From Candidatus Heimdallarchaeota archaeon (GTDB lineage: Archaea > Asgardarchaeota > Heimdallarchaeia > Heimdallarchaeales > Kariarchaeaceae), in NCBI GenBank assembly GCA_030149205.1, contig JASBSB010000001.1, positions 393,142-457,141 on the forward strand: a stretch of 64,000 nucleotides of DNA, written 5' to 3'. The translations under genes and the position numbers were made by a program. Positions 4,987-63,492 of this stretch are shown in pieces (the stretch's first letter is position 1; every line of letters begins with the position of its first letter). A model generated the notes under the pieces. The model was not told the origin of the DNA, ran no database searches, and was given only the letters and a program-made list of their open reading frames with translations.

Positions 4987-5076
4987 TGGACTGAGCGGGA
5001 TTTTCGAGATTTATCTTTTCGAACCCGCGGCTGCTAGTATGCGAAACTAGCACTCTACCAACTGAGTTATCAGCCC
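4987..5076 (-). tRNA. tRNA-Ala (anticodon CGC) with a ~17-nt insertion (putative intron) in the T-loop
   Basis: Manual cloverleaf: acceptor GGGCTGA/TCAGTCC with G3-U70, D-arm ACTC-AGTTGGTAG-GAGT, anticodon arm CTAGT-TTCGCAT-ACTAG, T-stem GCGGG/CCCGC. The T-loop is 24 nt (TTCGAAAAGATAAATCTCGAAAAT) instead of 7. Confidence 0.75.
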
Positions 5077-5211
5077 ATTAATCTACCTCTTTTGTGTCTA
5101 TTTTGAACATTCCCATAACAATCGAAATTCTCAGTGAATTGAGATAAATTATTTTCAAAATCAATGATTCATTATTTAGAGATTGGTGAGATTTAAAATC
5201 AATGAAACACG

Positions 5212-6267
5212 GTGTGGAGTATGGTAACTCAAGCTGAGATGAACCTAATCACAGGAGTTTCATTCATTGTTATAGGTGCGTTATTCAAACTTAAATCAAG
5301 GAACAATTTATTCAATAAAGGAGATTCTTGGGCATATTTCGCAATTTTTCATGGGATTGATGAAGCTTTTGATTCTTTGAAAAATTATTCTATTTTTTCA
5401 TCTGTTAAACTCTGGTTTGAAAAGGGCGAAATAATTTTCTTTGCTCTTTCAGCAATTTTTCTAATAATTGGAACATTGATAGTATTCGACATAATCCCAC
5501 CAAAGCATGAGCTTGAGCTCGGGTTGATATTTCAAAGTCCATTTGTCTTGTTGGTCTTAATTGCTAATGAAACAACAATAGACGTAATTGAAACAGCAAG
5601 AGTTTCAATAGGTGGATTTGAGTTTAGTTTAATTGCTCTTAGTTTTGGAGTGATCCCGACAATTCCTTTGATAATTGCTCTGCTAATAAATTTCCTCCAA
5701 ACTAGACGCAAATTCAAAACTATTGGGAACACAAAAATAATTGGATATGTGATAGTTTCGATGATGCTTACAGCTTATGCGTTTTCTGAACTCTATGCAA
5801 GTACCAATAATAATTTTCTGCTTTTAGAAATATTTGCAATTGCAGTAGTTCTTCTTTTCCCTGTTGAGTATAATCTTTCTGGAGAGAGTGGGGTACAACT
5901 ATTTGTCCTTTATCACAAAAGTGGAATTCCTGTAACTTCCATACACTTTAATACGAGTATAGACAGAGATACTGTTAATCTTGTGACCTCATTTTTGTCA
6001 GCAATAAAAACCTTAGTTGAAAATGAACTTGAGCTAGGGGAATTACAAGATATTCAGACTGATAAGGGAACTTTGGTGTTAGTTCAATTAGGGGAGTTCA
6101 TTTTAGCAACTCTCACATCAAGTTCTCCGAAAAAAATCAAAGAAAAATTGTTTCAAATCTCTGACACTCTTTCTTTAACTCTCAAAGACATTAGACCTGA
6201 AATAGTTGATTCAGCCAAAATTGATCAAATTGATACAATGATAATAAAACAACTAGAACTACAATGA
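5212..6267 (+). CDS. polytopic membrane protein with C-terminal roadblock/LC7 (MglB-like) domain
   Basis: The first ~230 aa are a series of hydrophobic helices. The C-terminus, DTVNLVTSFLSAIKTLVENELELGELQDIQTDKGTLVLVQLGEFILATLTSS, follows the roadblock/LC7 pattern (G-E-L..i..d.G.lvl...g.. .la.l). Confidence 0.4.
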   Translation: MWSMVTQAEMNLITGVSFIVIGALFKLKSRNNLFNKGDSWAYFAIFHGIDEAFDSLKNYSIFSSVKLWFEKGEIIFFALSAIFLIIGTLIVFDIIPPKHELELGLIFQSPFVLLVLIANETTIDVIETARVSIGGFEFSLIALSFGVIPTIPLIIALLINFLQTRRKFKTIGNTKIIGYVIVSMMLTAYAFSELYASTNNNFLLLEIFAIAVVLLFPVEYNLSGESGVQLFVLYHKSGIPVTSIHFNTSIDRDTVNLVTSFLSAIKTLVENELELGELQDIQTDKGTLVLVQLGEFILATLTSSSPKKIKEKLFQISDTLSLTLKDIRPEIVDSAKIDQIDTMIIKQLELQ

Positions 6268-6333
6268 AGAGAACCAAACTTTACATTTGATTTATTTTTT
6301 ATCGAATTGAATTATTTTCATGAGATGTTAGAT

Positions 6334-6966
6334 CTATCTTGCACCTTCTGCAGCATCAAAGAGAATTGAAGCAGCTAAAATTAGTCTACGATCCAATTTT
6401 GCATCTGGTGATACTGTCATTGTATAATTGTCTCTAAGTTTCGCAAGTCGGTTGTATTCCCCTATCTTGTTTCCGTTAATATCAAATATCTCAAAATGCA
6501 GTCTCATAAATATTTGAAGTATTGGTCCAATAATTGGTATTACGGATAGGATTCCGAATTTTCGAACAATGGTCTTGAACATAGATTTAGCGCTTGCCCA
6601 TCCAATAACTTCACCTGATTCTGTCTGAAACTCCCATCTTTCTCTTAACAAACTATGCCAAAACCTTCTTTTGAGGACTCCAACCATTTCATTATTTTCT
6701 AAATCATGAACCCTAAATCTAGCCCAGGCATCTAAGAAGGTCTCATCATAAAGAATAATTATTGGATGAGATTTCGTATCTGGATCATCAAAGATAACTA
6801 CATCCTTATGGAAAAAGAATCTAGCTCTTTTTGCCCAGAATAGTTTTTGATCAGTAGCTCTATCCTTGATATCATATGCTTCTTGAAACGTAAATAACCT
6901 CCTTATACTTTGGGTTACTAACAGTTCATTGAATACTAGTTTTTCTTCTGTTGTTTTTTCCAACAT
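6334..6966 (-). CDS. hypothetical protein, possibly LURP-one-related/scramblase-like (tubby C-terminal-like fold)
   Basis: Size about 210 aa and a beta-rich hydrophilic sequence. Only weak resemblance to the DUF567/LOR family. No catalytic motif. Confidence 0.2.
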   Translation of the reverse strand: MLEKTTEEKLVFNELLVTQSIRRLFTFQEAYDIKDRATDQKLFWAKRARFFFHKDVVIFDDPDTKSHPIIILYDETFLDAWARFRVHDLENNEMVGVLKRRFWHSLLRERWEFQTESGEVIGWASAKSMFKTIVRKFGILSVIPIIGPILQIFMRLHFEIFDINGNKIGEYNRLAKLRDNYTMTVSPDAKLDRRLILAASILFDAAEGAR

Positions 6967-7104
6967 TAATCAAATTTCTATTTTTTCAGTTCTTAAATTT
7001 TTCCACCACCAAAAATTAGGATGGGTGCTTTCTCAATTTAATTTTACGTTACTTTTTGGTATATTATAATAAGATATTAATTCTAAGGAGTTTAGATATA
7101 ATTA

Positions 7105-7950
7105 ATGCCTGAGGGCCCAGAAGTTGAAATTGTTAAAAGAGGGTTGTTAGCAATAAAAAACCAGCAAATTTCACAAATAATTGTATCAAACCACCCGAAA
7201 TACAACCTTATTCAAGATAGACTTTCTCACATCTCAAGGGTTTTAGATATACATAGAATTGGAAAATTTTTGATTTGGGAATTTGATTCAAACGTTTTTG
7301 CAATTAACCATCTTGGAATGACCGGTATTTGGTCTATTCAGAATACAAAAGAAGAGAGTAATTTACAAGAACTTGTTTTAAAGAAACATTTCAAACTAGG
7401 CTTTCACTGTGATTCTGGGGATTTTTTCATGTTTGAGGATATTCGAACATTTGGTAGATTTGAAATTTATAATGATGACCCTAGAAAATTTCATCCAACG
7501 TTAGTAAATATGGGACCTGATATCCTTGATAAAAATTTTAGCAATGTTGAATTTTCAAAACGTTTGAAAGGAAAGGGGTCAAGGGGGAGATCCGCTGAAA
7601 TTGGAAATGCTTTGCTCAACCAATCAATAATTGCAGGATGTGGAAATATTTACAAATCAGAATCATTATTTTTAAGTAACATAGATCCAAGAAGAAAGGT
7701 AAACACATTATCTGACACAGAGATGAACAAATTAGGAGAATCACTTCAAATTGTTGCAAAGAAAGCCTTAGAAGCAGGGGGATCTACAATACGTGATTTT
7801 GTTACAGTAGATGGGTATGATGGATTAATGCAGAATGAGTTTAAAATTTACGGGAAAGAAAATGAGCCTTGCCCAAACTGCCAATCAACTATTATAAAGA
7901 TTAAGCAAGGAGGGAGATCAACATATTTATGCGCAAAATGTCAAAAATAA
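7105..7950 (+). CDS. Fpg/Nei family DNA glycosylase/AP lyase (formamidopyrimidine-DNA glycosylase-like)
   Basis: Starts MPEGPEVEIVKRGL, the catalytic Pro2/Glu3 N-terminus PELPEVE of Fpg/Nei. H2TH-like region NALLNQSIIAGCGNIYKSESLF. C-terminal zinc finger CPNCQSTIIKIKQGGRSTYLCAKCQ. Confidence 0.85.
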   Translation: MPEGPEVEIVKRGLLAIKNQQISQIIVSNHPKYNLIQDRLSHISRVLDIHRIGKFLIWEFDSNVFAINHLGMTGIWSIQNTKEESNLQELVLKKHFKLGFHCDSGDFFMFEDIRTFGRFEIYNDDPRKFHPTLVNMGPDILDKNFSNVEFSKRLKGKGSRGRSAEIGNALLNQSIIAGCGNIYKSESLFLSNIDPRRKVNTLSDTEMNKLGESLQIVAKKALEAGGSTIRDFVTVDGYDGLMQNEFKIYGKENEPCPNCQSTIIKIKQGGRSTYLCAKCQK

Positions 7951-8011
7951 ATCATTTAAAATCAAGATTAATAAAAATTTATATATTCAAGGTCTCCTCG
8001 AAGAATTTTAG

Positions 8012-8446
8012 ATGGTTTTAGATAGTCGATCCATTTATCCCATTTTTTTGGGTATTTCTGTAATTGCCATTATTAACCATTGGCCACTTTTATTTTACCC
8101 ATTAACTCTTCTTGTTTTTATCCCCATGCTAGTCAATGTATTTACAATGAAGTCTAATTACAGGTACAACCTTAAAATTATAATTTATATTATACTGACT
8201 GATGGTGCTTTAATGCTTTATCTAACTTTGACACTCCCGGCATTCGGTCTGTTTTTTGTTGTAATACCTGTATTCTATTGGATAGTGTTAATAATATTTT
8301 ATTACACGATTAAGAGGGAGGTTAAGATAATTTCAAGACCCATATTTACTATGAATGATGATGATGCTTACAGAGCAAGAAAAGCGATGATAACCAGACA
8401 TCCTGAGGACATTATAAACATCCAAAAATACAAAAAATTCAGCTAA
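8012..8446 (+). CDS. small integral membrane protein (hypothetical)
   Basis: 144-aa ORF with 3-4 hydrophobic helices. Convergent with the next gene, overlapping it by 4 nt at the stop. Confidence 0.35.
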   Translation: MVLDSRSIYPIFLGISVIAIINHWPLLFYPLTLLVFIPMLVNVFTMKSNYRYNLKIIIYIILTDGALMLYLTLTLPAFGLFFVVIPVFYWIVLIIFYYTIKREVKIISRPIFTMNDDDAYRARKAMITRHPEDIINIQKYKKFS

Positions 8447-9771: not shown

Positions 9772-9781
9772 GTTTATGCAC

Positions 9782-24082: not shown

Positions 24083-25690
24083 ATGAGATACCAAAGAATT
24101 CAGGTTGTATTAGTATTTTTCACGGTACTGGCACTCATGTTTTATGATGAATCCTTGATACGAATAATTTATGATATTACTAATGTTTCATTGATTTTTT
24201 ATGTAATATGTGGGAATTATTTCCTTATTGAGCGCTTGACCAGACAAAGATTGCAACCCGTGCTCATTTCCCAAATATTAATGATTCTTCTAGGTCAACT
24301 TTCGCTTGGATTTTTGACGGTCACAGGTGTTCAACTCTTCTACAAAATATCTCCTTTTCTTACGACAGTTATTGAGCTTGTGGTATTGTTTTTTATAACC
24401 TATGAAATAGTCATTCAGTTTACAAAAAGAAATCTGATAAATAAGTCCAGCTTACTATTTTTCAACAAACCACACTATAGCCTTAAGAAAATGCACCTCA
24501 CCATCTCTGGCCTGTTCCTCTTTATTTTATTGTTCTATGTAGGTAGCTCAGTCAATGATATTAGGGAAATTCTTGTGCTAATGGGAATCTTTGTGGCTGT
24601 AAACTTACTCTCTTATAGAATATTATTCTCTTATTTTTGGTCAAATCAAGATGGAGTTGCTATCCCGAAAATTTTCACAGGAAATTCAACTGAGAGTTTC
24701 CTGGCTGTAATTAAATCAGCTGGGTTACACTGTTTAGAAAATTCCTCAATGGTAGACTCTCTACAATGTCTAGACAAGTTGACCATCAAAATTAAAGAAC
24801 AACTCAACATTCCAAAAAATTACCAAGAAAACACTCAAGAATTCACCTACAAGGAACTCTTCCAGATGTTTGAATCAGCAAAGAACTTTGAATTGACAGC
24901 AGACACATTTTGGAACCTTTTATCAGAAAAGCAACTATTCATTCTGTTAAATTATCAAAGAGCTCAATCCCTAAGAATTATTTCTGAACTAAATTACCTA
25001 TTAAGGTTGTGGGGAGAAAAAAATATGGTTGGAGTCAGTTTATTAAAATCATTGTTAATATACAGATTACATAAATGGAAGCTCTATGGGAGGTTACCAC
25101 CATATCTACATACCTTACTTATTGAATCAATTCTAACATTATCTTTGCTTAAAGACTCATCTTCGGAGTTAACTAACATGATTGAATATGAAATTCAACA
25201 CAGAAAGCAAGGTTTTAGGAGGCTAATTCTATTGTCAAAAGGACCTTATTCGAGATATAATCAACTTATTGAACCAATTTATTTTAATTATCTTTGCTTT
25301 TATGGAGAAAAAGGAGCACGATACCTAAACCATTTATGCACTCAAGACACACCAAATACGAGTATAATAGGCTCAAAAGCCCACCAAAGGTTAGATAACT
25401 ATTTTGATAATATGGTCAAGATATACATCGGTTCTGAAAGCAGGAAAATATTGGGAGAAGCACCAAATTTCCCATTAGTAGAATTTGAAGGTTATATTTT
25501 TAACATAGAAGAACCAATTACACCTGAGAAAATTAGATCCTTCAGAGATGATTTCACTCACCTTATTATAAAAGAAAAAAAGCATATAGCTTCAAAACCA
25601 AATTGGGTAAAGGATTTAAATGACAAATCAAAGATAATGACAAAGGAACAAAAAAAACTTTACTTAGAAAAATGGTTGAAAACAGAATAA
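24083..25690 (+). CDS. hypothetical protein, N-terminal multi-TM domain + ~300-aa soluble domain
   Basis: Long intact ORF. Six hydrophobic helices in the first ~200 aa. No recognisable motif. It ends 4 nt before the tRNA-Ala 3' end. Confidence 0.45.
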   Translation: MRYQRIQVVLVFFTVLALMFYDESLIRIIYDITNVSLIFYVICGNYFLIERLTRQRLQPVLISQILMILLGQLSLGFLTVTGVQLFYKISPFLTTVIELVVLFFITYEIVIQFTKRNLINKSSLLFFNKPHYSLKKMHLTISGLFLFILLFYVGSSVNDIREILVLMGIFVAVNLLSYRILFSYFWSNQDGVAIPKIFTGNSTESFLAVIKSAGLHCLENSSMVDSLQCLDKLTIKIKEQLNIPKNYQENTQEFTYKELFQMFESAKNFELTADTFWNLLSEKQLFILLNYQRAQSLRIISELNYLLRLWGEKNMVGVSLLKSLLIYRLHKWKLYGRLPPYLHTLLIESILTLSLLKDSSSELTNMIEYEIQHRKQGFRRLILLSKGPYSRYNQLIEPIYFNYLCFYGEKGARYLNHLCTQDTPNTSIIGSKAHQRLDNYFDNMVKIYIGSESRKILGEAPNFPLVEFEGYIFNIEEPITPEKIRSFRDDFTHLIIKEKKHIASKPNWVKDLNDKSKIMTKEQKKLYLEKWLKTE

Positions 25691-25693: not shown

Positions 25694-25790
25694 TGGACGG
25701 TTGGGGAATTTCATCTGGTTTTAACCAAATTTTGAACCCCAGGCCTCTTCCACGCCAAGGAAGCGATCTACCGGTCTGATCTAACCGCCC
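25694..25790 (-). tRNA. tRNA-Ala (anticodon GGC) with ~23-nt insertion (putative intron) in the T-loop
   Basis: Acceptor GGGCGGT/ACCGTCC (G3-U70), D-arm GATC-AGACCGGTA-GATC, anticodon arm CTTCC-TTGGCGT-GGAAG, T-stem TGGGG/CCCCA. T-loop is 30 nt (TTCAAAATTTGGTTAAAACCAGATGAAATT). Confidence 0.75.
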
Positions 25791-39296: not shown

Positions 39297-40025
39297 TTGA
39301 AATTAGTGAAGCAAAACAAACTTAGGAACATAAATACATTATTTTTTGACTTAGATGGTACACTTTTAGATCTTTCAGATGAGAATTTTGAGAAAGTATA
39401 TGCCTATGAAGCTGCAATGATTTTTAAAGATATTATTGACCCAAAAATTTTCGTTAAGTTACTTATTGAAAGCACCGTTGAAATGATGAAAAGTCGAGGA
39501 GAGAAGTTACTGATTGATGTGTTCTATGAATTTTTTTGTCCAAAGGTTGGATTAAAAGAAGATGAGGTTCAGAATCGATTCTTGAGGTTTTACGAAACCT
39601 CATTTGATAAATTAAAGTTGGTGTCAAAAAGAATTAACGGAGTTCCTGACTTAATAAGGAAACTCAATGACAGAGGTTATAAGCTGGTTTTAGCAACACA
39701 ACCTTTCTTTTATGAGTTAGCAACCATTAAAAGAATAAGATGGGCAGGATTGGAACCTGATCAGTTCTTATATTTTACCCATATTGAAAATAGTAGTGTG
39801 GCAAAACCGAACCCCCTGTATTTTGAACAACTTGCAAACATCACCAAATCAAAACCTGAAGAAATTTTAATGATAGGGAATGACTACCTATATGACTTAT
39901 CAGCAAAGAAATTAGGCATTTCTACATGGATGACCCCTCAAAATCAATCAAATCTTGAGTACAAAGATAAAATGAGCCCAGATTTTGAACTTCCACTATT
40001 AGAACTCTTAGATTTCCTACCTTAG
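39297..40025 (+). CDS. HAD-superfamily hydrolase
   Basis: Motif I LFFDLDGTLLD near the N-terminus and a C-terminal G-N-D motif (MIGNDYLYDL), the HAD catalytic signatures. Confidence 0.65.
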   Translation: MKLVKQNKLRNINTLFFDLDGTLLDLSDENFEKVYAYEAAMIFKDIIDPKIFVKLLIESTVEMMKSRGEKLLIDVFYEFFCPKVGLKEDEVQNRFLRFYETSFDKLKLVSKRINGVPDLIRKLNDRGYKLVLATQPFFYELATIKRIRWAGLEPDQFLYFTHIENSSVAKPNPLYFEQLANITKSKPEEILMIGNDYLYDLSAKKLGISTWMTPQNQSNLEYKDKMSPDFELPLLELLDFLP

Positions 40026-40597
40026 ATGATTTCACTCTCAAACTCTTCTTCTAATTCTGAACTGGTAGATAGAAGCTGACCTAGATTTTCAAATATTTCA
40101 ATTAAGTTATCATCATTTTTTATTGAATATTCATAGAGAAAAATTTCATTCGACCAAGTCTTTGAGATTTTCTCCATCAATGACTTCACATCTGATATAC
40201 TAAAGTCAGCTTCATTAGTTAAATCAATCTTGTTAACAAGAAAAACCAAAATAGGAGACCCACAATGCTTTTCGACCTGTGGGAGCCAGTCATTAACTGC
40301 GTTTAATGATACAAAATTGGTTAAATCGATCAAAAAAATTACAACAGAAGTTCCTCTTAAATACATTTCAATCAAAGATTTGTAAGAAAGTTGTGATCCA
40401 AGTTCCCAAATGCTAAACAGAAAACTATTACCTGCGTATTGCATTGGAAAACTTTCGATTTGCACTGGAGTGGTGGGGATATATTTCTCAGAAAATTTCT
40501 GATAGATGAGTTTGTTAATTAAACTAGTTTTCCCGGTTCTGGAACTACCTAATAACAAAATCTTGAATATATATTGAGTGTCCACCATTCGAACCAT
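40022..40597 (-). CDS. Ras-superfamily small GTPase (Arf/Rab-like)
   Basis: G1 LLGSSRTGKTSL, a conserved Thr in the switch-I region (PTTPV), G3-like WELGSQ (compare WDTAGQ / WDVGGQ) and G4 NKIDL. Confidence 0.75.
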   Translation of the reverse strand: MVRMVDTQYIFKILLLGSSRTGKTSLINKLIYQKFSEKYIPTTPVQIESFPMQYAGNSFLFSIWELGSQLSYKSLIEMYLRGTSVVIFLIDLTNFVSLNAVNDWLPQVEKHCGSPILVFLVNKIDLTNEADFSISDVKSLMEKISKTWSNEIFLYEYSIKNDDNLIEIFENLGQLLSTSSELEEEFESEII

Positions 40598-40661: not shown

Positions 40662-42371
40662 TCATTTTGCATAGTTTAAGATTGATTTTTCAACTTTAAA
40701 CTCTTCTGGAAGTTTTTCTAAATTCAAAATCCTCATGACTGAGGAATCAAGCGCTGTATGGTTACGAGCACTTAAAAGCTGGCCTGCCCTCATCATCAAT
40801 GTCCTTCTTTTTACGGTTTCGTCTCCTTTTTTAGGATAATCCATTACCCTGGTTCGGGTTGATCCTATCACTGCAACTAACCTATTTTCATCTCCTGAGA
40901 AGGTAAGAATAACCTTTTCATTATCATTGATTGAAAATACAATTTCTTCGGGTTTAAATTGAACTTCACTTGAACTAAGCTCACTTAACACAGATTCTAA
41001 TTGGACATCAAGACCATCTAAAATTGAGATCAGTTTTGTAGGGTTAATATTGTCAGTAATTTCATAAATAGAAGTTTGTCCACTGGTATAATCTGATTCC
41101 AAGGCACCATCTAACACATATTCACTTTCTCTAATCACGTCAAAGGTTTCAAATAAAGGAATATCAGATACTGCCTCAACTGATAATGAGTCAGCAAGAG
41201 AATTAGGCAACATATTTCGTTTTAATTTAGAAACCTGTACTTTTGTAGTAGCTCTGGTGTTTCCAGTTGGAGTGCTGTCCTCTTTTTTGAACATCCCTAA
41301 TAACTTTGCGATGAACCCCTTTTTCTGAGGAGCTGGGGGCTTAATGCTGGATTGTGTTTCATATGTATTCTCCTTTTGCTCAACCTCAATAGTAAACTCC
41401 TTTAACCAACCCTCAGCATCACTATCAACGAGTTCTAGAATACTTGTCATTTGGGTCGCATTTACCCCATCAACCTTAGTTGTTAAAATCATTGAGGGTT
41501 TAGAGCTAACATAGGGATTCCTAACTAGAATTAAATGAGAGTTATTTTCATCAAGTAAGTTCCCAGATAAGAATTGAAGTTTATAGTTTGAATCAAGTTT
41601 GGAAAGGTGAGAGTGAAGCGATTCAAGAGAACTATTACTAGGCTGTTTGTCTATATTTGAGAAACTGGAAAAAACACTTTTCCATTTTCCAGACAGGATC
41701 GCTTTTGTATCAAGATAGTTAGGGATTATAGCGTCCTTTTTCTCTTCAATCTGGTTTTCCTTGGTATATGAAATAAATTTTCTCCGACTAATTTCAACCA
41801 GATCTGCTACACTATTCACCTTGACAGATTTAGGAGAATCTTCATATTCCAAACGTAAATCCGTCCTTCTAATTGCAGCAAACAGAACCGCTAATTCCCA
41901 AAAACCGAAGTCTGAAGATTCTAAAAATTCTCTGGTATAATACAAAAACGGAGCTATAAAATTATAATGAATTCTACCATATCTGATATCCATCGGGAGT
42001 CCACGACTTGCTAAAAAAAGATCATTTTTTCGAATTTTTGAACCAAGATAATACCCTAGAGCCATTGTTTCCATGACTTTCTTGGAACTCTCATTTCTGG
42101 TCTCTAGGCCTATCTTGAAGAGTTCGAGCACACAGCTTCTTCTTTCCTCATCACTTGCACCAATTAATTCTGAAGCAGTAACTATGAAATCTGCAAGAAA
42201 TAATGCCCTTTGGGCACTTTCATCACTTTTTGATAACCCATGTTTTTCAGCAAATTCAATTAGCTCAGGAGACATGGATTCATACCTTTTCAGCCTAGTA
42301 TCTAAGTCGAATTCTGAATTAACATTCTCTCTAAGTTCACCTATCATTTGATAATTAGGAATCAAATCCAT
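40662..42371 (-). CDS. large protein with C-terminal roadblock/LC7 (MglB-like) domain; probable GTPase partner
   Basis: Lies 64 nt upstream of the GTPase on the same strand. The C-terminal LISILDGLDVQLESVLSELSSSEVQFKPEEIVFSINDNEKVILTFSGDENRLVAVIGS follows the roadblock pattern. The N-terminal ~400 aa are unknown. Confidence 0.45.
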   Translation of the reverse strand: MDLIPNYQMIGELRENVNSEFDLDTRLKRYESMSPELIEFAEKHGLSKSDESAQRALFLADFIVTASELIGASDEERRSCVLELFKIGLETRNESSKKVMETMALGYYLGSKIRKNDLFLASRGLPMDIRYGRIHYNFIAPFLYYTREFLESSDFGFWELAVLFAAIRRTDLRLEYEDSPKSVKVNSVADLVEISRRKFISYTKENQIEEKKDAIIPNYLDTKAILSGKWKSVFSSFSNIDKQPSNSSLESLHSHLSKLDSNYKLQFLSGNLLDENNSHLILVRNPYVSSKPSMILTTKVDGVNATQMTSILELVDSDAEGWLKEFTIEVEQKENTYETQSSIKPPAPQKKGFIAKLLGMFKKEDSTPTGNTRATTKVQVSKLKRNMLPNSLADSLSVEAVSDIPLFETFDVIRESEYVLDGALESDYTSGQTSIYEITDNINPTKLISILDGLDVQLESVLSELSSSEVQFKPEEIVFSINDNEKVILTFSGDENRLVAVIGSTRTRVMDYPKKGDETVKRRTLMMRAGQLLSARNHTALDSSVMRILNLEKLPEEFKVEKSILNYAK

Positions 42372-45647: not shown

Positions 45648-47789
45648 TTGGTACAATCATTGTCAATTCAAATTGAAAATATTAGTAGCAGAATTCAACA
45701 ATTTCTAATAATAGTTTTAGCGGGAGTCTATACCACAATACAGTCCCTTGTTCCTTCAACTATTAGAATACTTCCGGGTTTGGATATAACAAATCAAGGA
45801 TTTGGACTATTTGTTCTTGCAACAGGGGCAATGATATTTGGAAAGGGAGTTGGAGCAGGTTCCGCAGGTTTAGGTGTGATTTTTGACCAGTTTAAAGTTG
45901 TTCTTGATGGGTCCTCTGTCCCTAACTTGAATCTTGGGCTATTGGTCGGAACTGTAAGTTTAGGACTAGGTGCATGGTTAACAGGATTCCTTGAAAACGG
46001 TCGTACTGGAGATTTTGTTTCTTCAAGTTTTAAAGGTGTCATGTCAAAGGCGGAAATTCTTAAAGTGGGGAGAAAAACCTTGGTTTCAATAGTTGGCTTA
46101 GGAATCACCTCAAACTTTACGTATGCGTTTGGAGCTCAATTAATAGAAGGTGGAAACATCTTTGGAGCTATTACCTATTTTTTGACAACTTTCTTAGAAG
46201 ACAGCTTTGTGCTCATATTAACAGTTCCAATATCACTTTTAGCATTTGATATTACAAATGTTTACAATGAAAAAAAATCAAATTTTATAGAGCAATTAAA
46301 TCAAAAGGTGGATTATAAAATCGAGGTTTCACAATCTGCTGAAATTTTGAAGGTTTCGTTACCTGAGACTTCCTTAGTTCAAGGGAAGTGGACACCAGTT
46401 GTGGTTGAGTTTATGAATCCATCAACTGAAAAAAAGCAATATCAGGTTGAAGCAGTATTTACCACAAAATTTTATCCTCACACTGACAAAACACCTCAAC
46501 TCAAACCTGGTGAGGGATGGAAACAGACATTTTTCGTTCTCCCCAGTAAGCAGAGTTCAGTTTACGGGAGAATTAGGATAACCAGTAACAACGACATACA
46601 GTACAAATCATCAAACCCTGATGAGTCAATTGTTGAAATTACCGCTAATTCAAGAGACCCCAACACCATAATTGGTTCACTAATAGGCTTAAGTGGTGTA
46701 AATTTTGGGATTCTTGGAATTTCTGTTATTTGGGATCAGGTTTTATCATTTTTTTCTAACCCTGAATTGCTCTTATCTCAATTTCAATCTACGGTTTCAA
46801 CATTGTCTGAAGTAATTTTTGCTGAAATCTTATTATTCATTTCATTGTTATTATGGACAGTGTTTCGTACAAAGAAGGAGAAAACCCAATTTTCACAAAA
46901 GATTAGTTTTTCGAGTGATTTAGATGACCAGCTAATTCAATCGCTTAAGGCAAATTCAATAAGGATAATGCTCAAAAAATATGGAAATGGGCTAACAAGC
47001 GTTTTTCGGGTGCTTATTGGAATAAGCAGTTTAGGGTTAATCATATTTTTGGGAAACCAGGGGTATCAAGTAATTACAAATCCCACGTACACTGTTACTA
47101 ACCAAGAGTTGCTTTTTGGTTTAATTTTAGGGATGATAATTTCTTGGGTGCTCGGATTCAGAGGTTTACAGATAATTACTGAGATGAATCTCAAAAATGC
47201 AGCATATAATAATAACCCTGATGACTTTGTTCAAGAGTTCAAACCTGTTGGGGATATAAATGAAAATGAACCCAATAATTTTCTATTTAAGGTGATTAAT
47301 ACTTCTGATTTACCAGGAATAAGAATCAAATTTGAATCAACAGATTCAATTGCTCCACCTTTAATAGAACTACACATAGAACCTGGTGAGATAGCTCAAT
47401 TTAAGGTCGTAGTCACTCCTAATACAGGAAATCATAAAATTTTAGCATTAGCTTATCCGCTGTTTGATAAAAAGAAAAAATATGTGAATTTTGATGAATC
47501 TGAACCTTTTGCTAAACAGGAGCTTAGTTTTGCAGTAAATTCAAAAGGAGTCCTGGGGATGTCAAAAAAACAACAATCCCAACTTAAAGGTATTACTGCT
47601 TTGTTGACTGGTTTTACTGGATTACTGGCAGTTATCAATCAGATAGTCCCAGGAAGCAATAATTTTACGATAATTCTGGATAACTTACCTGCGCTACTGA
47701 GTTTGCAGATCCCGATTTTGGGAGCATATTTCAGCTTGAATTCTACGCTAAAAAATTGGCTAATTAAATCAGGAGAAAATGACTTATGA
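45648..47789 (+). CDS. large polytopic membrane protein with central beta-rich (Ig/CARDB-like) extracytoplasmic segment; first gene of the vWA operon
   Basis: Multiple hydrophobic helices at both ends and a ~250-aa hydrophilic beta-rich middle. Its stop overlaps the start of the next gene (ATGA). Confidence 0.45.
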   Translation: MVQSLSIQIENISSRIQQFLIIVLAGVYTTIQSLVPSTIRILPGLDITNQGFGLFVLATGAMIFGKGVGAGSAGLGVIFDQFKVVLDGSSVPNLNLGLLVGTVSLGLGAWLTGFLENGRTGDFVSSSFKGVMSKAEILKVGRKTLVSIVGLGITSNFTYAFGAQLIEGGNIFGAITYFLTTFLEDSFVLILTVPISLLAFDITNVYNEKKSNFIEQLNQKVDYKIEVSQSAEILKVSLPETSLVQGKWTPVVVEFMNPSTEKKQYQVEAVFTTKFYPHTDKTPQLKPGEGWKQTFFVLPSKQSSVYGRIRITSNNDIQYKSSNPDESIVEITANSRDPNTIIGSLIGLSGVNFGILGISVIWDQVLSFFSNPELLLSQFQSTVSTLSEVIFAEILLFISLLLWTVFRTKKEKTQFSQKISFSSDLDDQLIQSLKANSIRIMLKKYGNGLTSVFRVLIGISSLGLIIFLGNQGYQVITNPTYTVTNQELLFGLILGMIISWVLGFRGLQIITEMNLKNAAYNNNPDDFVQEFKPVGDINENEPNNFLFKVINTSDLPGIRIKFESTDSIAPPLIELHIEPGEIAQFKVVVTPNTGNHKILALAYPLFDKKKKYVNFDESEPFAKQELSFAVNSKGVLGMSKKQQSQLKGITALLTGFTGLLAVINQIVPGSNNFTIILDNLPALLSLQIPILGAYFSLNSTLKNWLIKSGENDL

Positions 47790-49585
47790 GTAAAAAACTT
47801 CTTTCTGTACTAACCTTAACCTTTATTCTGTTGGGAGCAGGGTTTACATATTATTCATTTACTACCCCAACAATTGACTTAAGTCCAGAATTTGCGGCTC
47901 AGGCAATTCAATTAACTTCTGGAGCGAACTTACTCTTTGGAGGAAATGCTTTGAAACTACTAAACAAATACGAGGGAATTGGAAAAATAACCAAGGATTA
48001 TCTTACTGATGTATTTAAATTTAATATGAAAGGGAAAAAGAACACACTTTATTACCAAAACTTAAACAATTTGATTCCAGGATATTCCAATCCCCCTAAC
48101 TTTGCATTTGACCCCACATACAATGAAAGCATATCTACTCAAGGGTTAGGATTCAACATTGCACCTTCATCTTTTATTAAAAGTTATCAAAACAAATTCC
48201 TCTCAACACCGATTGAAAGTACAGATCCTTTATCAAAGATCCCAGATAGTATGAAAGAAAATATAAATAAAACATCAAGACTGTTTGATGTTTGGAAACA
48301 AACTTTAACAGGAAATACCTCCTATTTTAATTTTGTATCAACTTCTGGCTACTCATTAAATTACCCGTTTTTCTCTCTCCCTAAGATTTATGATGGAAGA
48401 AATGAATCTTTCTACAACTCTGCGATAATTGGACAAAAAGATCTTGTAATAGTGATTGATAGATCTGGATCATTGAACAAAGATACTTTTACTGCACTTA
48501 AGAACTCAATTAAGTCAATCATAAACACCCTATCTCCATCAGACAGATTCAATATTTTAACATTTTCAGATCATGTTTCTGTTTTTTCGAATAGTTTGAG
48601 CAGTGCAACTATTAGTACAAAAATTTTAGCAGAGAAATATATAGATAGAATTAGATTAGGTGGGCTTTCAGACATTGGGATGGGATTTACTTCGGGATTA
48701 AAAATTCTGACAGATTTTGGATATCAGAGGAATAAGCGATTGTTTCTCACCTTTTCAGATGGAAAACCTACTTCAGGTGTAATTCAAAATGATTCATTAA
48801 TCCAAGAGATTGTTAGTGCAAATGGTGGAGCTAAAGCAACCCCAATATTTTACGGGATTACCAAAAATCCTAATAATGAAATGTTTACCTCCTTGGCAAA
48901 TCAGATGGGAGGGTTCTATATTAACACAAATACCACGAGTAAACTACTTAACTTGGTTCCCAACTATAATAAGCTAATAAACAATATTACTTCTGAAAAC
49001 AAAATTTGGAGTACTCCCTTTGTAAGCTCTATTAACCACAATATTTTCTCTAACTTAAGTTTTGCAATAAATTATGCTGGTCAACACTTTGGAGTTTTTA
49101 ACATCCAAGTTAAGCTATCTGAATTTTTGGAGAGTTTACAGAAGACAAAGTTGTATAATTCCCAGACTAACTTTATAATCAACACTGGAGGATACACCTT
49201 TGCTCATCCTATATTTGAAAGTCTCCAATTAAAAGACAGAATTACAAACAACCTTCAACAACCAATCGAAAATTTTACGCTAACCTCGGCCGATTTCAAA
49301 GGGATGTTGACGGATTTAGCCAAAAATAACTATAAGACCAAAATAGTTCAGAGTAATAATTTAACTAAGTTTGTGATTTCCTTATCACCGCTTGGACAAA
49401 CAGGATTGGTTTCAGGAACTATCATCCCATTAACTGAAATAATCAACCAAAACATCTTAGGTTCACTTTCTGGTCACAGACCAAATTTTGAAGGAATGTA
49501 TCTTTCCTTTGCTATTGCTGTAACCGTTGGAATAATTATCATTTTGTTAAGTAGCAGAATTCTGAAGGAGGAAACAAAACAATGA
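47786..49585 (+). CDS. von Willebrand factor A (vWA) domain membrane protein
   Basis: N-terminal signal/TM. MIDAS-type motif LVIVIDRSGSLNKDTF...SDRFNILTFSDHV...FSDGKPTSG. C-terminal TM helix. Start and stop codons overlap both neighbours. Confidence 0.65.
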   Translation: MSKKLLSVLTLTFILLGAGFTYYSFTTPTIDLSPEFAAQAIQLTSGANLLFGGNALKLLNKYEGIGKITKDYLTDVFKFNMKGKKNTLYYQNLNNLIPGYSNPPNFAFDPTYNESISTQGLGFNIAPSSFIKSYQNKFLSTPIESTDPLSKIPDSMKENINKTSRLFDVWKQTLTGNTSYFNFVSTSGYSLNYPFFSLPKIYDGRNESFYNSAIIGQKDLVIVIDRSGSLNKDTFTALKNSIKSIINTLSPSDRFNILTFSDHVSVFSNSLSSATISTKILAEKYIDRIRLGGLSDIGMGFTSGLKILTDFGYQRNKRLFLTFSDGKPTSGVIQNDSLIQEIVSANGGAKATPIFYGITKNPNNEMFTSLANQMGGFYINTNTTSKLLNLVPNYNKLINNITSENKIWSTPFVSSINHNIFSNLSFAINYAGQHFGVFNIQVKLSEFLESLQKTKLYNSQTNFIINTGGYTFAHPIFESLQLKDRITNNLQQPIENFTLTSADFKGMLTDLAKNNYKTKIVQSNNLTKFVISLSPLGQTGLVSGTIIPLTEIINQNILGSLSGHRPNFEGMYLSFAIAVTVGIIIILLSSRILKEETKQ

Positions 49586-52233
49586 ACAATAATGTAGGGA
49601 ACAATGACCCAGAAGAGAACAATAAAACTGAACCCAAAGGTAAAAAAATTGAAGCCTCATCAGAAGGGGAAAAGATTGATGAAACTACAGAGGAGCCTTC
49701 AAAACAAAATGCTGGAATCGAAACTAATACAAACGCTTCTTCAGAACCTCTTGACAGTTCAGACAGTAATACAGAAACGATAAAAGACTCACCTATAATT
49801 AGCGACACTAACCAACCGACTGATTCGAAGAAGGATGTAAGCAAGTTAGATCAAGAACATGATAATGAAGAAAAGAATCAAACTGAACTTAAGGGAGGGG
49901 ATGAGAGTACTCCATCATCACAGAATGATAAAAACTCCACTGGAGGGTCGTTCTTACAAAGCCTTGGTTCAGTAGGCAATATTTTACCTTTTCAGGTTAG
50001 AAAGTCAAAGCCTGAAGATTTAAGTCCGCAGGATCAAATAGAGGCTGCGATTAACGAAACAAAACAAAATGTACCTAAATTCTACTCAAAGACAAATTTT
50101 TCAGAAAAAACCAGGTTTCAGAAATTCAGAATAGCTACATATAAGTCTCTCTCTCTCTCGTTAATACCATTATTGATTATCTTGATCGGATTATCTTTTA
50201 ATTTGCATGCGATTCAAGGAACAGTCTTTGTCGACAACACACGTCAATACTCGACAAACTCTATTCAATATTCTAACAAATTAGCAACGCAACTAAATAA
50301 TGAATACTCAAGCTTCATAAGTTCTATTGAGAGTGAATTTCGGAACCTAAAATTTAACATTGCGAGCGATCCAACAACCTATGATATCCAAAGTTTTTCG
50401 GTTAATGAAACCGGTGCCACTCCGAACCCTCAGTTCAGCACGAAATATAACAAGATTGTTGATTATAGTGTATCTGCTTGGCAATTGTTAGCAAAACACA
50501 ATAGAACGAAATCTGTAAATGATACAGTACAACTAACTGCCCAATTTGACCCATACTTTATGACCACATACAATAAAGTTAAGGAAATTCTCTGGATAAG
50601 ATTAATTCTCGATAACGGGGTTGTACGGACTTACCCTCATTTACCAGATAATTCCTCAAATACTAACTTCCAAGCACTTCAGTGGTTCAATAAAACTAAA
50701 TCAGCATTCAGTTTCGATACATTTGTAACAGGCCTAGAAGTTGATAATATTACATCAAAATTGATTTATTCAATAACAAGTCCATATTTTAAGAATGGAA
50801 TAAAATTGGGTGTTTTGCAAGCTTCAATTGATGTAGTAGAACTAAAACAACAATTTAATTTGTTAAAGGGTAAAGGGATTACCCCCTTTTTGATGACAAA
50901 GGCTGGCCAAGGAGTCTATCATCCGAAACTTTCACTTAAGCAATTTGGTTGGAATAATAATGAGTTAAACCAGAGTATCTTAAAAATTGACCCAGTTATC
51001 AATGAGATAAATCGAACTAAAAATATCATTGGGTTAACAAACCAATTAAATGGGAGTGTTTCAGTAAATACTGTAGGTGTAACATATTGGATATTTCCGA
51101 TTACTAACACTGGTCAAGTTTTAGGACTTTACTTAGAACTTTCAACCACTCCAGTAAAGTCTCAATTCGATAGTTTTCAATTACTTGCACTCCCAATTGG
51201 AGTAGCTGTTATCCTTCTAGTTTCTATTGTTGGATTACAATTACAATCTGGATTAATTAAAATAGATAATCTTGAAAAATCGCTTAAAAGGTTTAGAAGG
51301 GCTACTAAAATTGAAGGGATATCAAATAGATTAAGGGATACCCTTACTCAAATGAGTACAGAAAATATAATTGACAAAACTGGATCAAGGGCAGAGAAGT
51401 TAATCAAAGAGAAAGGAAAAGATGCAAGAGAAAATGTGGAAGGTGAAATTTCAAGAGGTTTGGAAAAGGTGTCTTCAAACATTGATAAAGGTAAATCTAT
51501 GATCCTTGAAGAGGAAGATACCAATCTTGTTGAGGTAATTGAAAAGGATAAAATTTTGACAAAAATATTAGAATCGCTGGAAGAAAATCCGTACTTATTC
51601 CTTCAAAACAGGATAAAAATGAAGAATATCAATATTGAGGATATAAAAAATGAAAACTATTCCTCTTTAAAAAGCCTAGTTACAGGTGCAGAGAAGCTTT
51701 TAATAGCATTAATTGTAGGGCGAAGAATTGATATAGCCAAAATTTCTGATTCCTGTGAGATGAATGGAGAACAGCTAAGCGGGTTTTTCACCAGCCTCCC
51801 TCTAAATCTTGGAATCACGTTGTCAGAAGATCAAAAATCGATCATGGTAGAACAAAAATTGTTATTGGAAAACATTGAATCATTTACTTTGTACTTCAAT
51901 AAATTCCTCAAAAACCCTAAAAAATACCTTAAACTGTCAACTAGTAATAATGTTGAAAAAATAGATAAAGTTAAATCTCAAATAGAAAAGTTCTATTCCA
52001 CAATCCAAGAAAGAAACTCCATTTCATTAGATGAACTTTCAGAGATATTTCAACTCCATAAGAAACAAATAATTGAAATTTTTAGTCAGTTGAGTTCCGA
52101 CAAAAAATTTGGAATTAATTTAGAAGAAAAAACTTTGAGTATTGATGAAGATAAATTCAAATCTAACCTCTTGGACTTTGTTAAAAAATTCACTTTGATA
52201 GTAGTCACAAGATACTCTTTTATCTCCGCTTAA
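49582..52233 (+). CDS. large membrane protein: acidic low-complexity N-tail, two TM helices around an extracytoplasmic domain, coiled-coil C-terminus; third gene of the vWA operon
   Basis: The N-terminal ~150 aa are D/E/S/T/N-rich. TM at about aa 190-215 and aa 535-560. The C-terminal 300 aa are K/E-rich helical. Confidence 0.45.
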   Translation: MNNNVGNNDPEENNKTEPKGKKIEASSEGEKIDETTEEPSKQNAGIETNTNASSEPLDSSDSNTETIKDSPIISDTNQPTDSKKDVSKLDQEHDNEEKNQTELKGGDESTPSSQNDKNSTGGSFLQSLGSVGNILPFQVRKSKPEDLSPQDQIEAAINETKQNVPKFYSKTNFSEKTRFQKFRIATYKSLSLSLIPLLIILIGLSFNLHAIQGTVFVDNTRQYSTNSIQYSNKLATQLNNEYSSFISSIESEFRNLKFNIASDPTTYDIQSFSVNETGATPNPQFSTKYNKIVDYSVSAWQLLAKHNRTKSVNDTVQLTAQFDPYFMTTYNKVKEILWIRLILDNGVVRTYPHLPDNSSNTNFQALQWFNKTKSAFSFDTFVTGLEVDNITSKLIYSITSPYFKNGIKLGVLQASIDVVELKQQFNLLKGKGITPFLMTKAGQGVYHPKLSLKQFGWNNNELNQSILKIDPVINEINRTKNIIGLTNQLNGSVSVNTVGVTYWIFPITNTGQVLGLYLELSTTPVKSQFDSFQLLALPIGVAVILLVSIVGLQLQSGLIKIDNLEKSLKRFRRATKIEGISNRLRDTLTQMSTENIIDKTGSRAEKLIKEKGKDARENVEGEISRGLEKVSSNIDKGKSMILEEEDTNLVEVIEKDKILTKILESLEENPYLFLQNRIKMKNINIEDIKNENYSSLKSLVTGAEKLLIALIVGRRIDIAKISDSCEMNGEQLSGFFTSLPLNLGITLSEDQKSIMVEQKLLLENIESFTLYFNKFLKNPKKYLKLSTSNNVEKIDKVKSQIEKFYSTIQERNSISLDELSEIFQLHKKQIIEIFSQLSSDKKFGINLEEKTLSIDEDKFKSNLLDFVKKFTLIVVTRYSFISA

Positions 52234-54509: not shown

Positions 54510-54536
54510 AATCAAAAAACATGGCTTCTTTACGCA

Positions 54537-56890: not shown

Positions 56891-56891
56891 G

Positions 56892-59772: not shown

Positions 59773-59980
59773 CTATTTTTCACCAGCTCAGAAATTCTGA
59801 GCTTAACTGAAGTTTGTCTTTGGATTTATGAACTTATTCCAATAATTTTATTAGAAAATCGAAAAAATTATACCTTCATGAATTAGGTTTCTGAGCTAAA
59901 TTTGCTTCCTATATTATTTTATTTTTTATAGATTAACAACGAACTAGATAATTGTTAGAAAGAATAAACAATTATGTGTG

Positions 59981-61681
59981 TTAACGTCTACCTCTCCTTC
60001 TACGGATTGGCGCTTCTTCTTCTTTAATGTTTTCAACCGCTTCCTCATACATCTTCAATAATTCGACTTCTTGCTCTTTCTCAGCACCATCAGGCAATTT
60101 TTCCGCATATTTTTTCCATACTTTCAGATTCTTTTCCAATTCTGGTTTAAGTCTAAAGCCAACTGAGAGTCCAGTTTGGATAACTCTTCGAATTAGGGAT
60201 AGAAGGTCTTTCTCAGTTACCCCATAGGACTTCCAATTTTTCTTAATTTTTACTAAATCAAGTAGCTGATTTTGGTTTTTGTAAATTCTTTCACCAACTT
60301 CTTTTGATTTGATTTCCATAATTGAATAATAGACAACAGATGACCAAAAATGGAAAGGCTCTGACAGCTCTTCACGGATGTATTCTTGACCTTTTTTCCA
60401 AAATTCAGCTTCCAAATGATTAAATGCATGCACATAGGGTTCTACCTCTTTAGGGTTCTCCGTTAATCTGTTTAACATTGATTTACTAAGAACGATCTGT
60501 AGCCAAATCGATGAGATTGTACCTTTTGCCATCAGCTGTTTTGATTCTTCACCTCTTAGAAGTGGATAAAGTACCTTCTTCCAAAGCTTTCCTGAATCTT
60601 CTCGTACTGATTTTTCTAGAGCCTTATATGGAACCGACCTTAAGGAAATATGGGAGGATAATATTAGGTATAAAGTACTCGCAAGATCGAAATAAGCTTC
60701 TGGAATGTTATTCGTTAGTCTTTGGATTTCACCCAAATAGTAATTTACCACTTTAAGTCTCTGTTTATCAGGATATGGCTGATAAAGTAACATATCTAAA
60801 ACTAACGCATGAGGGAGCAATTCAAGTGCTTCTTTGGTTTCTTCGCTTAATTCAGGAACGTATGTATCTTTCTTCTCTTTAGATGAGCCATCTGCACTGT
60901 CTTCAGAGTTTTCTTCGGCTTGAAAAGAGTTTTCTGGGTAAGTTCCGGATTTAAGGATCTCTAGAAAATCTACTATAAAGGAGTATAATGTGTTGGTTCT
61001 ACCTCTAAGGTCACCATTGGTGAGAGGTTTGGAGTCTGGTTTCTCACCTTTCTCCAAATTTTCATTGTTTATGGGAATGAGTCTTTGGTTGTTGTTATCT
61101 GTTAACCATGATTTATTTTTCAATGCCTCATAGGTATAAGGGTCAAAGAAAGTATCAACAATGCTTGCTAAGGTGGGATTTGATTCCTTTAGCTTTTCAC
61201 TAAGCTCCTTTACCTTGTTTCCTTCAAATAATTTTGGAAGAATCGTAAAATAGAGTATCTCATTGACAAAAACATAAGTTAAATCTAGAGTATCTGAATC
61301 TATTTCATTTAACCAATCTCTTGCTTCTCTTGAGATTTGTTTGTACAACTTGTAAGTCTCAGATTCCTTGATTTCTTTGAATAACGATTTCAGATCAACC
61401 TCTTTGCTTCTTAAAAGGGAAAGTAGTTCATTAAGAATCACATATTTCGGAACAAAGCTTAACAAGCTCTGCTCATCGATAATAGGTTTAATTTTTTCTT
61501 CTCCAGATCGTCGTTGATCAACACGAGAACTTTCGACAATAAACATAAGTTGAGGCAACTGACTGTCTCTAACATCTGAGAATAGTGGAAGTGGGACTTG
61601 AAGCTGTTCTAAAACGCTTATAAAGAACAGATCCCTAGCTTCGGAGAATATTCGTACTGGATTTGGGAGTTCTTCAACCAT
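59981..61681 (-). CDS. hypothetical helical protein with C-terminal Arg-rich tail
   Basis: 566-aa intact ORF, mostly alpha-helical in composition. Ends PIRRRRGRR. No recognised motif. Confidence 0.4.
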   Translation of the reverse strand: MVEELPNPVRIFSEARDLFFISVLEQLQVPLPLFSDVRDSQLPQLMFIVESSRVDQRRSGEEKIKPIIDEQSLLSFVPKYVILNELLSLLRSKEVDLKSLFKEIKESETYKLYKQISREARDWLNEIDSDTLDLTYVFVNEILYFTILPKLFEGNKVKELSEKLKESNPTLASIVDTFFDPYTYEALKNKSWLTDNNNQRLIPINNENLEKGEKPDSKPLTNGDLRGRTNTLYSFIVDFLEILKSGTYPENSFQAEENSEDSADGSSKEKKDTYVPELSEETKEALELLPHALVLDMLLYQPYPDKQRLKVVNYYLGEIQRLTNNIPEAYFDLASTLYLILSSHISLRSVPYKALEKSVREDSGKLWKKVLYPLLRGEESKQLMAKGTISSIWLQIVLSKSMLNRLTENPKEVEPYVHAFNHLEAEFWKKGQEYIREELSEPFHFWSSVVYYSIMEIKSKEVGERIYKNQNQLLDLVKIKKNWKSYGVTEKDLLSLIRRVIQTGLSVGFRLKPELEKNLKVWKKYAEKLPDGAEKEQEVELLKMYEEAVENIKEEEAPIRRRRGRR

Positions 61682-61820
61682 TCTATTTCTAAATTGAATT
61701 CATTACTCCTTTTTTAAAATAATCAATGGAGACAAATAAAATAGAAAATAAAAGAAGGTAAAAAGAAAAGACCTGTTATCTGAAAACCAATTTTTATTTA
61801 ATCTTTGAAAAAGTTCCTGT

Positions 61821-62552: not shown

Positions 62553-62706
62553 ATGATGAACGCTGAACATATCAGATTGGAACAAATCAAAATACACCGG
62601 AAATCTCATACTTGGAGTGGAATCGACAAAATTTTGGAGAATCAATAACGAATCTTATAAACATTAGGAATCAATCTATGTTCAAGGAAATTTAGGTTTC
62701 CTTTAA

Positions 62707-62821
62707 ACCGAGGTCGCCCAGTCTGGTCAACGGCGGGGGACTTAAGATCCTCTCCTATAGAGGTTCGGGGGTTCGAAACAAGGGCCTTTTTCAGGTACTT
62801 GAGAAAATCCCCCCCTCGGTA
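62707..62821 (+). tRNA. tRNA-Leu (anticodon TAA), class II, with ~30-nt insertion (putative intron) in the T-loop
   Basis: Acceptor ACCGAGG/CCTCGGT, 3-bp D-stem with AGTCTGGTC loop, anticodon arm GGGGA-CTTAAGA-TCCTC, long variable arm, T-stem GGGGG/CCCCC. The T-loop is 37 nt. Confidence 0.6.
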
Positions 62822-62860
62822 TTAAAGAAGGTTTATTAAGAATATATCCGTTTAAAATCT

Positions 62861-63175
62861 GTGAACAACAATAATCTATTAACTAGCACCATAAGAGAGT
62901 TAATGGAGCAAGCAAAGGAAGACGGGGTAATTACCCTAGACGAATTTGAAATCATTGAACAAGTTAGAATAGATGTGAATAACTACACAGAGCTGTTAAG
63001 AAAGGCATATGAAGATAACATCATTACCGAGGTAGAACAGTTCCATCTGAACAAATTAAAGGATAGGATCAAGACACAGGCGGAAAAAGTAGCTAGGACA
63101 GATGGCAAAATTACTGAAGAGGAAAAGGAGATTTTAGAAGCTTTATCACGTGTTCTCATTAATATAAGCAACTAG
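62861..63175 (+). CDS. small TerB-like (tellurite-resistance TerB / DjlA N-domain-like) protein
   Basis: Two copies of the D-G-x-I-T-x-x-E pattern (EDGVITLDEFEII, TDGKITEEEKEILEAL) in a 104-aa helical protein. Confidence 0.3.
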   Translation: MNNNNLLTSTIRELMEQAKEDGVITLDEFEIIEQVRIDVNNYTELLRKAYEDNIITEVEQFHLNKLKDRIKTQAEKVARTDGKITEEEKEILEALSRVLINISN

Positions 63176-63386
63176 TCTTTTATGTTATATTATTAAAATA
63201 TGGATTAACTTTCTCAAATTCCATTGCAGACCAAAGATTTCCACAATCAAATTTCTAAGATTCAAAGTTCCGAGAATTGAAATTTTCATATTCTTCTACA
63301 TACCATTATTTAGAAGCCACGTACATAACAAAGTTATTTTAAAGTTGTAAAACACATCTGATTTAGACATTAGAGAGATGTCCTAG

Positions 63387-63492
63387 GGCAAGGTACTCAA
63401 GTCTGGTCCAAGAGGCGTGACTGGAAATCACGTGTGTTTTGCACGCGGGGGTTCAAAATCACTTTCAAGTGATGAAATTCCCCCCCTTGTCA
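63387..63492 (+). tRNA. tRNA-Ser (anticodon GGA), class II, with ~21-nt insertion (putative intron) in the T-loop
   Basis: Acceptor GGCAAGG/CCTTGTC, D-arm CTC-AAGTCTGGTCCAA-GAG, anticodon arm CGTGA-CTGGAAA-TCACG, 14-nt variable arm, T-stem GGGGG/CCCCC. The T-loop is 28 nt (TTCAAAATCACTTTCAAGTGATGAAATT). Confidence 0.7.

Follow-up and report, generated by a model that had tools for sequence, protein, structure and literature searches.

All tRNA genes in the stretch of archaeal DNA analysed here, 64,000 nucleotides (nt) of contig JASBSB010000001.1 hereafter called the window, carry an insert in the T-loop. It appeared very probable that the four inserts are archaeal introns of the bulge-helix-bulge (BHB) type, located between tRNA positions 59 and 60 and predicted from their sequences to be spliced by the endonuclease EndA. 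The enlarged T-loops as such were confirmed, and their interpretation as introns at 59/60 is supported.

By standard searches these genes were not detected. ARAGORN in default mode, ARAGORN allowing canonical anticodon-loop introns (-i), Rfam at the gathering threshold, and Rfam at E<=10 all returned zero tRNAs for the window of 64 kilobases (kb), a result caused by limits of the tools and not by absence of tRNA genes. A scan for cloverleaves, in which all four arms were required and the length of the T-loop was left free, revealed exactly four tRNA genes in the window. This is the set named in an earlier note on this DNA, and the T-loop lengths, the motifs flanking the inserts, and the internal hairpins were also found as described there. 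The genes are located as follows, with coordinates that include the discriminator A73:

4987-5076, minus strand: tRNA-Ala(CGC), T-loop of 24 nt; 5' exon (tRNA positions 1-59) 5018-5076, 3' exon (positions 60-73) 4987-5000; TTCGAAAAGATAAATCTCGAAAAT

25694-25790, minus strand: tRNA-Ala(GGC), T-loop of 30 nt; 5' exon 25731-25790, 3' exon 25694-25707; TTCAAAATTTGGTTAAAACCAGATGAAATT

62707-62821, plus strand: tRNA-Leu(TAA), class II with a long variable arm, T-loop of 37 nt; 5' exon 62707-62777, 3' exon 62808-62821; TTCGAAACAAGGGCCTTTTTCAGGTACTTGAGAAAAT

63387-63492, plus strand: tRNA-Ser(GGA), class II, T-loop of 28 nt; 5' exon 63387-63457, 3' exon 63479-63492; TTCAAAATCACTTTCAAGTGATGAAATT

The G3:U70 pair (G3:T70 in the DNA) that the earlier note had ascribed to both alanine tRNAs is read directly from the sequence. 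The search for BHB motifs suggested in that note was performed on the window. Every strict BHB-like motif was removed, 3194 candidates on both strands, and ARAGORN was applied to each product. The same four tRNA genes were obtained and nothing more. The gene for tRNA-Leu(TAA) was recovered only via a motif on the reverse strand shifted by 1 nt, since on the gene strand one mismatch in the central helix prevents its recognition as a strict motif. A scan of the window for T-arms alone detected neither a further T-arm of tRNA grade nor a plain one with a 7-nt loop. From these two scans it follows that the statement "all four tRNAs in the window" is correct.

Removal of 17, 23, 30, and 21 nt at 59/60 from the genes for tRNA-Ala(CGC), tRNA-Ala(GGC), tRNA-Leu(TAA), and tRNA-Ser(GGA), respectively, raised the number of ARAGORN calls from none to four out of four. 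The spliced tRNAs have the expected anticodons, correct anticodon arms, and the Ala identity pairs, and the excision leaves a canonical T-loop of 7 nt, TTCGAAT or TTCAAAT. Every splice register from 53/54 to 61/62 was scored for the central, outer, and inner helices of a BHB motif. Only splicing at 59/60 brings together the central helix, the two 3-nt bulges, and a helix on either flank; no other register combines a central helix with both flanking helices. The non-canonical introns at 59/60 proposed earlier are supported. According to the register test, the introns are organized as follows (lengths of helices in base pairs, bp):

5001-5017, minus strand: intron of tRNA-Ala(CGC), 17 nt, composed of A, AGA-TAAA-TCT (inner hairpin), CGAA (pairing with T54-G57), and AA; central helix 4/4 bp, outer helix 5 bp, inner helix 3 bp, bulges AAA and AAU

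25708-25730, minus strand: intron of tRNA-Ala(GGC), 23 nt, composed of A, TTTGG-TTAAAA-CCAGA, TGAA, and AT; central helix 4/4 bp, outer helix 5 bp, inner helix 6 bp, bulges AAA and AUU

62778-62807, plus strand: intron of tRNA-Leu(TAA), 30 nt, composed of A, CAAG-G-GCCT-TTTTC-AGGT-A-CTTG, AGAA, and AA; relaxed BHB with central helix 3/4 bp (mismatch G57·A), outer helix 5 bp, inner helix 4 bp

63458-63478, plus strand: intron of tRNA-Ser(GGA), 21 nt, composed of A, TCACT-TTCA-AGTGA, TGAA, and AT; central helix 4/4 bp (63452-63455 with 63473-63476), outer helix 5 bp, inner helix 5 bp, bulges 63456-63458 and 63477-63479

In all four genes the T-stem provides the outer helix, and in the pre-tRNA it runs directly into the central helix, in which T54-T55-C56-R57 pair with YGAA near the 3' end of the intron. 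The 3' end of either central-helix strand leads into a bulge, consisting of A58, A59, and the first intron nucleotide on one side, and of the last two intron nucleotides and N60 on the other, with AAA opposite AAU or AUU. The inner helix is a hairpin formed by the interior of the intron. A helix of 4 bp with two opposite 3-nt bulges, helices on either side, and a canonical tRNA upon excision, the features of an archaeal BHB intron, were thus found. The earlier note had called the motif relaxed, which applies to the Leu intron with its mismatch but not to those of Ala(CGC), Ala(GGC), and Ser(GGA), where the strict 3-4-3 arrangement (hBHBh') is present. In the genes for tRNA-Ala(CGC) and tRNA-Leu(TAA), splicing at 57/58, 58/59, and 59/60 gives an identical mature sequence, and therefore the junction in these two is fixed by the BHB geometry alone.

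The ends of the inserts had also been described as repeating exon sequence. The likeness exists, but direct reading indicates that it is no duplication. It arises because YGAA must pair with T54-R57 and because TTCGAA reads the same on both strands, with the result that CGAA pairing with TTCG resembles a copy of C56-A59. A short apparent repeat at the borders of an insert could otherwise be taken for a target-site duplication, and the four genes for decaying pseudogenes or for genes with remnants of mobile elements in their 3' part. Integrative elements often target the T-arm and the 3' end of tRNA genes. Apart from the repeat being accounted for by pairing to the palindromic TTCGAA, all stems of the four tRNAs are intact without any mismatch, their identity elements are preserved, and the inserts, a mere 17-30 nt, have nothing element-like aboard. 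Moreover, the four loci are the only tRNA genes of the window, and the same signature occurs in metagenomes in tRNAs of at least 20 isoacceptor families that are intact after excision (see below). Decay or element insertion is therefore considered very improbable. Kinship among the four introns, which would be a sign of intron transposition, was not detected either: beyond the bases forced by pairing, just 2-4 nt are common to the introns of tRNA-Ala(GGC) and tRNA-Ser(GGA), which is not meaningful.

The geometry of the introns is far beyond chance. When each intron was shuffled 200,000 times and scored for the observed pairing in the central and inner helices, the fraction of shuffled sequences matching the observed geometry was 2.5e-4 for Ala(CGC), 5e-5 for Ala(GGC), 5e-3 for Leu, and 7.5e-5 for Ser. 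By thermodynamic prediction, the conformer with the central helix is the minimum-free-energy fold of the Ala(CGC) precursor, and it lies 1.8 kcal/mol above the minimum in Ala(GGC) and Ser. After splicing, the minimum-free-energy folds of both alanine tRNAs are clean cloverleaves; those of the Leu and Ser tRNAs have acceptor, variable, and T arms as expected, and their D and anticodon arms were not recovered.

Changes at the pair formed by position 57 provided further evidence. In the window genes, the partner of G57 is C in tRNA-Ala(CGC), and that of A57 is U in tRNA-Ala(GGC) and tRNA-Ser(GGA). The four inner hairpins have no sequence in common, yet all of them pair. Metagenomes from JGI/ENA were scanned with the T-arm signature GGGGTTCRAAA…YGAAAWTCCCC, in which R57 and its partner Y were left independent of each other; the rest of the central helix was fixed by the signature, and the set used for covariation is therefore signature-selected. 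At least 120 matching stretches (L084-L203) were obtained. Plain excision at 59/60 converted 69 of the 120 matches listed into tRNAs recognized by ARAGORN, while about 40% gave no tRNA after a single excision. Among the matches listed, the confirmed tRNAs belong to at least 20 isoacceptor families; their 60 distinct introns measure 15-40 nt and include AT-rich as well as GC-rich ones. In 99 distinct sequences among these matches, the pair at position 57 is G-C in 40, A-U in 55, G·U in one, and A·C in three cases (Fisher p = 6e-23), and in the 60 distinct tRNAs confirmed by ARAGORN it is G-C in 24 and A-U in 36, with neither G·U nor A·C. Covariation of the pairing is thus seen, in a signature-selected set with the remainder of the helix fixed. 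It supports the view that the central helix is a selected feature of this predicted class of introns, and the metagenome sequences show such 59/60 T-loop introns to be widespread and common in environmental archaea.

One of the metagenome genes, a tRNA-Ala(GGC) (L133), has exons 84% identical to those of the gene in the window and, at the same site, an unrelated intron of 30 nt. Other tRNA genes next to those selected for a 59/60 intron on the metagenome contigs are mostly intron-less or have canonical introns; this tally is qualitative, as ARAGORN -i also gave some spurious calls with odd anticodons or "introns" of 1 kb. Orthologous tRNA genes were not obtained by way of gene neighbourhoods: those of FEN-1 genes in relatives at 64-74% identity (L204-L213) did not contain tRNA genes, and the protein gene beside that for tRNA-Ala(GGC) is an orphan (see below). 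A search of genome contigs with the carboxyltransferase encoded in the window, a protein too conserved to be selective, yielded mostly unrelated archaea and bacteria, and the three Asgard loci among the hits (L002-L004) are free of tRNA genes.

Several points weigh against BHB introns in these genes. The AU-rich central helix lies outside the minimum-free-energy fold of the thermodynamic model in three of the four genes, and in the Leu precursor it contains the G·A mismatch. The covariation was observed with paralogous introns and the signature-selected metagenome set, not with orthologues from close relatives. Finally, neither EndA nor a ligase is present in the gene lists of the approximately 82 kb read, that is, the window and its flanks.

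If the inserts were retained, the mature tRNAs would possess a T-loop enlarged by an additional hairpin, in the manner of an expansion segment. The predicted folds of the pre-tRNAs are compatible with this, since they leave the acceptor stem and the T-stem intact and present the insert as a side hairpin. An expansion segment, however, needs neither the pairing of YGAA with T54-R57 nor bulges of exactly 3 nt on both sides nor covariation, and a retained insert would break the universally conserved fold of the T-loop and its contacts to the D-loop, as established from tRNA structures. In addition, a comparable insert at 59/60 in ARMAN-2 is cut by EndA in vitro (PMC3239211). Retention is accordingly regarded as highly unlikely.

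Splicing at the BHB motif, the preferred interpretation, would take place in several steps. The BHB anatomy, the covariation, and the restoration of tRNAs are results of the present analysis; the processing steps we infer from established archaeal tRNA splicing. EndA would cut each bulge after the second nucleotide, and an RtcB-type ligase would join the exons and circularise the intron, leaving a normal T-loop of 7 nt, TTCGAAT or TTCAAAT. The CCA end would be added after splicing, because it is encoded in none of the four window genes. Modification of the T-loop and its tertiary contacts to the D-loop would become possible only once splicing is completed. Judging from other Asgard genomes, the host should possess the ligase and EndA, the latter presumably of the type reported from these archaea, an (αβ)2 enzyme with an L1 loop and broad specificity (PMC5829648). 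Endonucleases able to act at non-canonical sites are (αβ)2 enzymes with this loop or ε2 enzymes. Genuine introns could also be removed without recognition of the BHB motif by EndA, through self-splicing or by another nuclease. No sequence feature in favour of such a process was found. With 17-30 nt the introns are far below the size of group I or group II ribozyme cores, no ribozyme family was detected in the window by Rfam, and the BHB geometry is precisely satisfied. This possibility appears even more remote than retention or decay, and the three alternatives are improbable also when taken together.

From Logan contig SRR23576960_3905 (373,508 bp), on which the window lies, 10 kb on each side were added, giving the approximately 82 kb mentioned above. 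On one side, about 34-118 nt beyond the end of the window (L082 12214-12298, minus strand; window coordinates 64034-64118), an intron-less tRNA-Ser(TGA) gene was called directly by ARAGORN. It is divergent to the gene for tRNA-Ser(GGA). The flank on the other side contains no tRNA gene. The finding that four of four tRNA genes are affected is therefore valid for the window, but with 18 kb of flanking contig included it becomes four of five (95% interval 28-99%), and the site is not universal in the genome. Canonical introns at 37/38 are absent from all five genes. Both Ser genes are preceded by a TATA-like element, AACAAAGTkATTTTAAAGTT, which is consistent with two expressed Ser paralogs.

The concentration of introns at a single site, with no canonical intron in five genes, is somewhat unusual. 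It raises the question whether 59/60 is the dominant or near-universal intron site in tRNA genes of a Heimdall-like lineage devoid of canonical 37/38 introns, which at present is a tentative and rather doubtful proposition. If true, it would mean that introns have spread in a lineage-specific manner to one non-canonical site. A selective role would then be possible, such as shielding the T-arm and the 3' end from integrating elements or, alternatively, holding back modification of the T-loop and tertiary folding until splicing is done.

Introns at 59/60 are already documented, and the window genes are further examples of a phenomenon that is textbook knowledge for specialists. By definition, the archaeal BHB motif has a helix of 4 bp with a 3-nt bulge on either side, and the splice sites lie in the bulges (PMC4090602, PMC3239211); 59/60 is among the listed non-canonical sites of archaeal tRNA introns (PMC4090602). 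Such introns have been reported from Thermoproteales, other Crenarchaeota, Nanoarchaeota, and ARMAN-2 (Marck & Grosjean 2003 and Sugahara 2008, both as cited in PMC4090602; Fujishima 2011, PMC3239211). In ARMAN-2, cleavage in vitro was demonstrated for the 59/60 intron of tRNA-Cys, and a strict hBHBh' is present at this site in tRNA-Pro(GGG) (PMC3239211). The window introns resemble these in their site, the 3-4-3 architecture, the use of the T-stem as outer helix, and their size, archaeal tRNA introns ranging from 11 to 129 nt with most of them between 12 and 25 nt (PMC4090602). Poor detection is another common trait, since cryptic tRNA genes of ARMAN are likewise hard to find with common search tools (PMC3239211). 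The window introns differ in the Heimdall-like Asgard host and in the use of one site by four of five neighbouring tRNA genes with no 37/38 intron seen, whereas in the lineages described 59/60 is one of many sites and occurs beside canonical introns.

In two other groups of Asgard archaea, Atabeyarchaeia and Freyarchaeia, 92-95% of the tRNA genes are interrupted by introns, and the sites are often non-canonical (Valentin-Alvarado et al. 2024, PMC11291895). A single tRNA there frequently contains 2-4 introns, and their sites vary; the window genes have one each, all at 59/60. For Atabeyarchaeia-1, Supplementary Data 4 of that study lists at least 10 of 40 tRNAs whose intron stops exactly 17 nt short of the annotated 3' end, and two in which this distance is 14 nt. 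Placed by the coordinates of the table alone, these introns lie in the T-loop region, an indication that a T-loop site is used repeatedly for insertion in a further class of Asgard archaea. The site is not singled out in the main text of PMC11291895. Canonical introns at 37/38, archaeal as well as eukaryotic, are processed by enzymes of the same family (EndA/TSEN), and their recognition in archaea relies on the same BHB element, but they reside in the anticodon loop and not in the T-loop. The eukaryotic TSEN enzyme gauges the distance from the mature domain and is not expected to process a site in the T-loop (PMC3239211).

The main value of these genes lies in a warning for annotation and in a pointer to a possible concentration of introns at 59/60 in a Heimdall-like lineage. 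Default ARAGORN and Rfam/Infernal reported zero tRNAs for 64 kb that hold four. Counts of tRNAs by which metagenome-assembled genomes are judged for quality and completeness, and inferences on codon usage, would therefore be too low in such lineages unless tools aware of BHB motifs are applied. Asgard archaea are the closest prokaryotic relatives of eukaryotes. The window genes would add a clean example of Asgard tRNA introns that are archaeal in style and rich in non-canonical sites, unlike the strictly 37/38 pattern of eukaryotes.

The window has a GC content of 34% and prokaryotic coding density. Its closest named homologs, at 58-68% identity, are from Heimdallarchaeota LC_2 and Kariarchaeaceae. 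Based on these homologs, an archaeal FEN-1, and a small GTPase, the host is an uncultivated Asgard archaeon related to Heimdallarchaeia/Kariarchaeaceae, without a close representative at the species level in the genome collection scanned. Small GTPases of the Ras type are typical "eukaryotic signature" proteins of Asgard archaea. A similar GTPase gene is found near FEN-1 in one of the relatives (L209). Protein genes assigned to a function include:

40022-40597, minus strand: small Ras/Arf/Roc/RagA-like GTPase, 191 amino acids (aa)

30734-34105, plus strand: isobutyryl-CoA mutase/GTPase fusion IcmF, 1729 bits

17045-18601, minus strand: methylmalonyl-CoA decarboxylase/carboxyltransferase α-like subunit

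The latter two point to genes for acyl-CoA metabolism in this Asgard genome. Many large open reading frames (ORFs) of the window, 475-883 aa in length, had no match in Pfam or NCBIfam; they are located in the following regions:

45648-52233, plus strand: large ORFs without match

24083-25690, 34169-35596, 37485-39245, 40662-42371, and 59981-61681: large ORFs without match

Three consecutive ORFs of this kind, with 713, 599, and 883 aa, have the same orientation. The ORF of 535 aa adjoining the tRNA-Ala(GGC) gene is an orphan, which among 5.8 billion proteins matched itself alone.

A candidate for an archaeal C/D-box small RNA was also noted at 8353-8408 on the plus strand. It overlaps a called ORF of 144 aa without Pfam match, and its similarity to sR1 in Rfam is weak (17.7 bits, E = 3.7). 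The order of elements is UGAUGA, 12 nt, AAGA, 4 nt, CGAUGA, 12 nt, and CUGA, and 12 nt is the canonical guide spacing of archaeal C/D-box RNAs.

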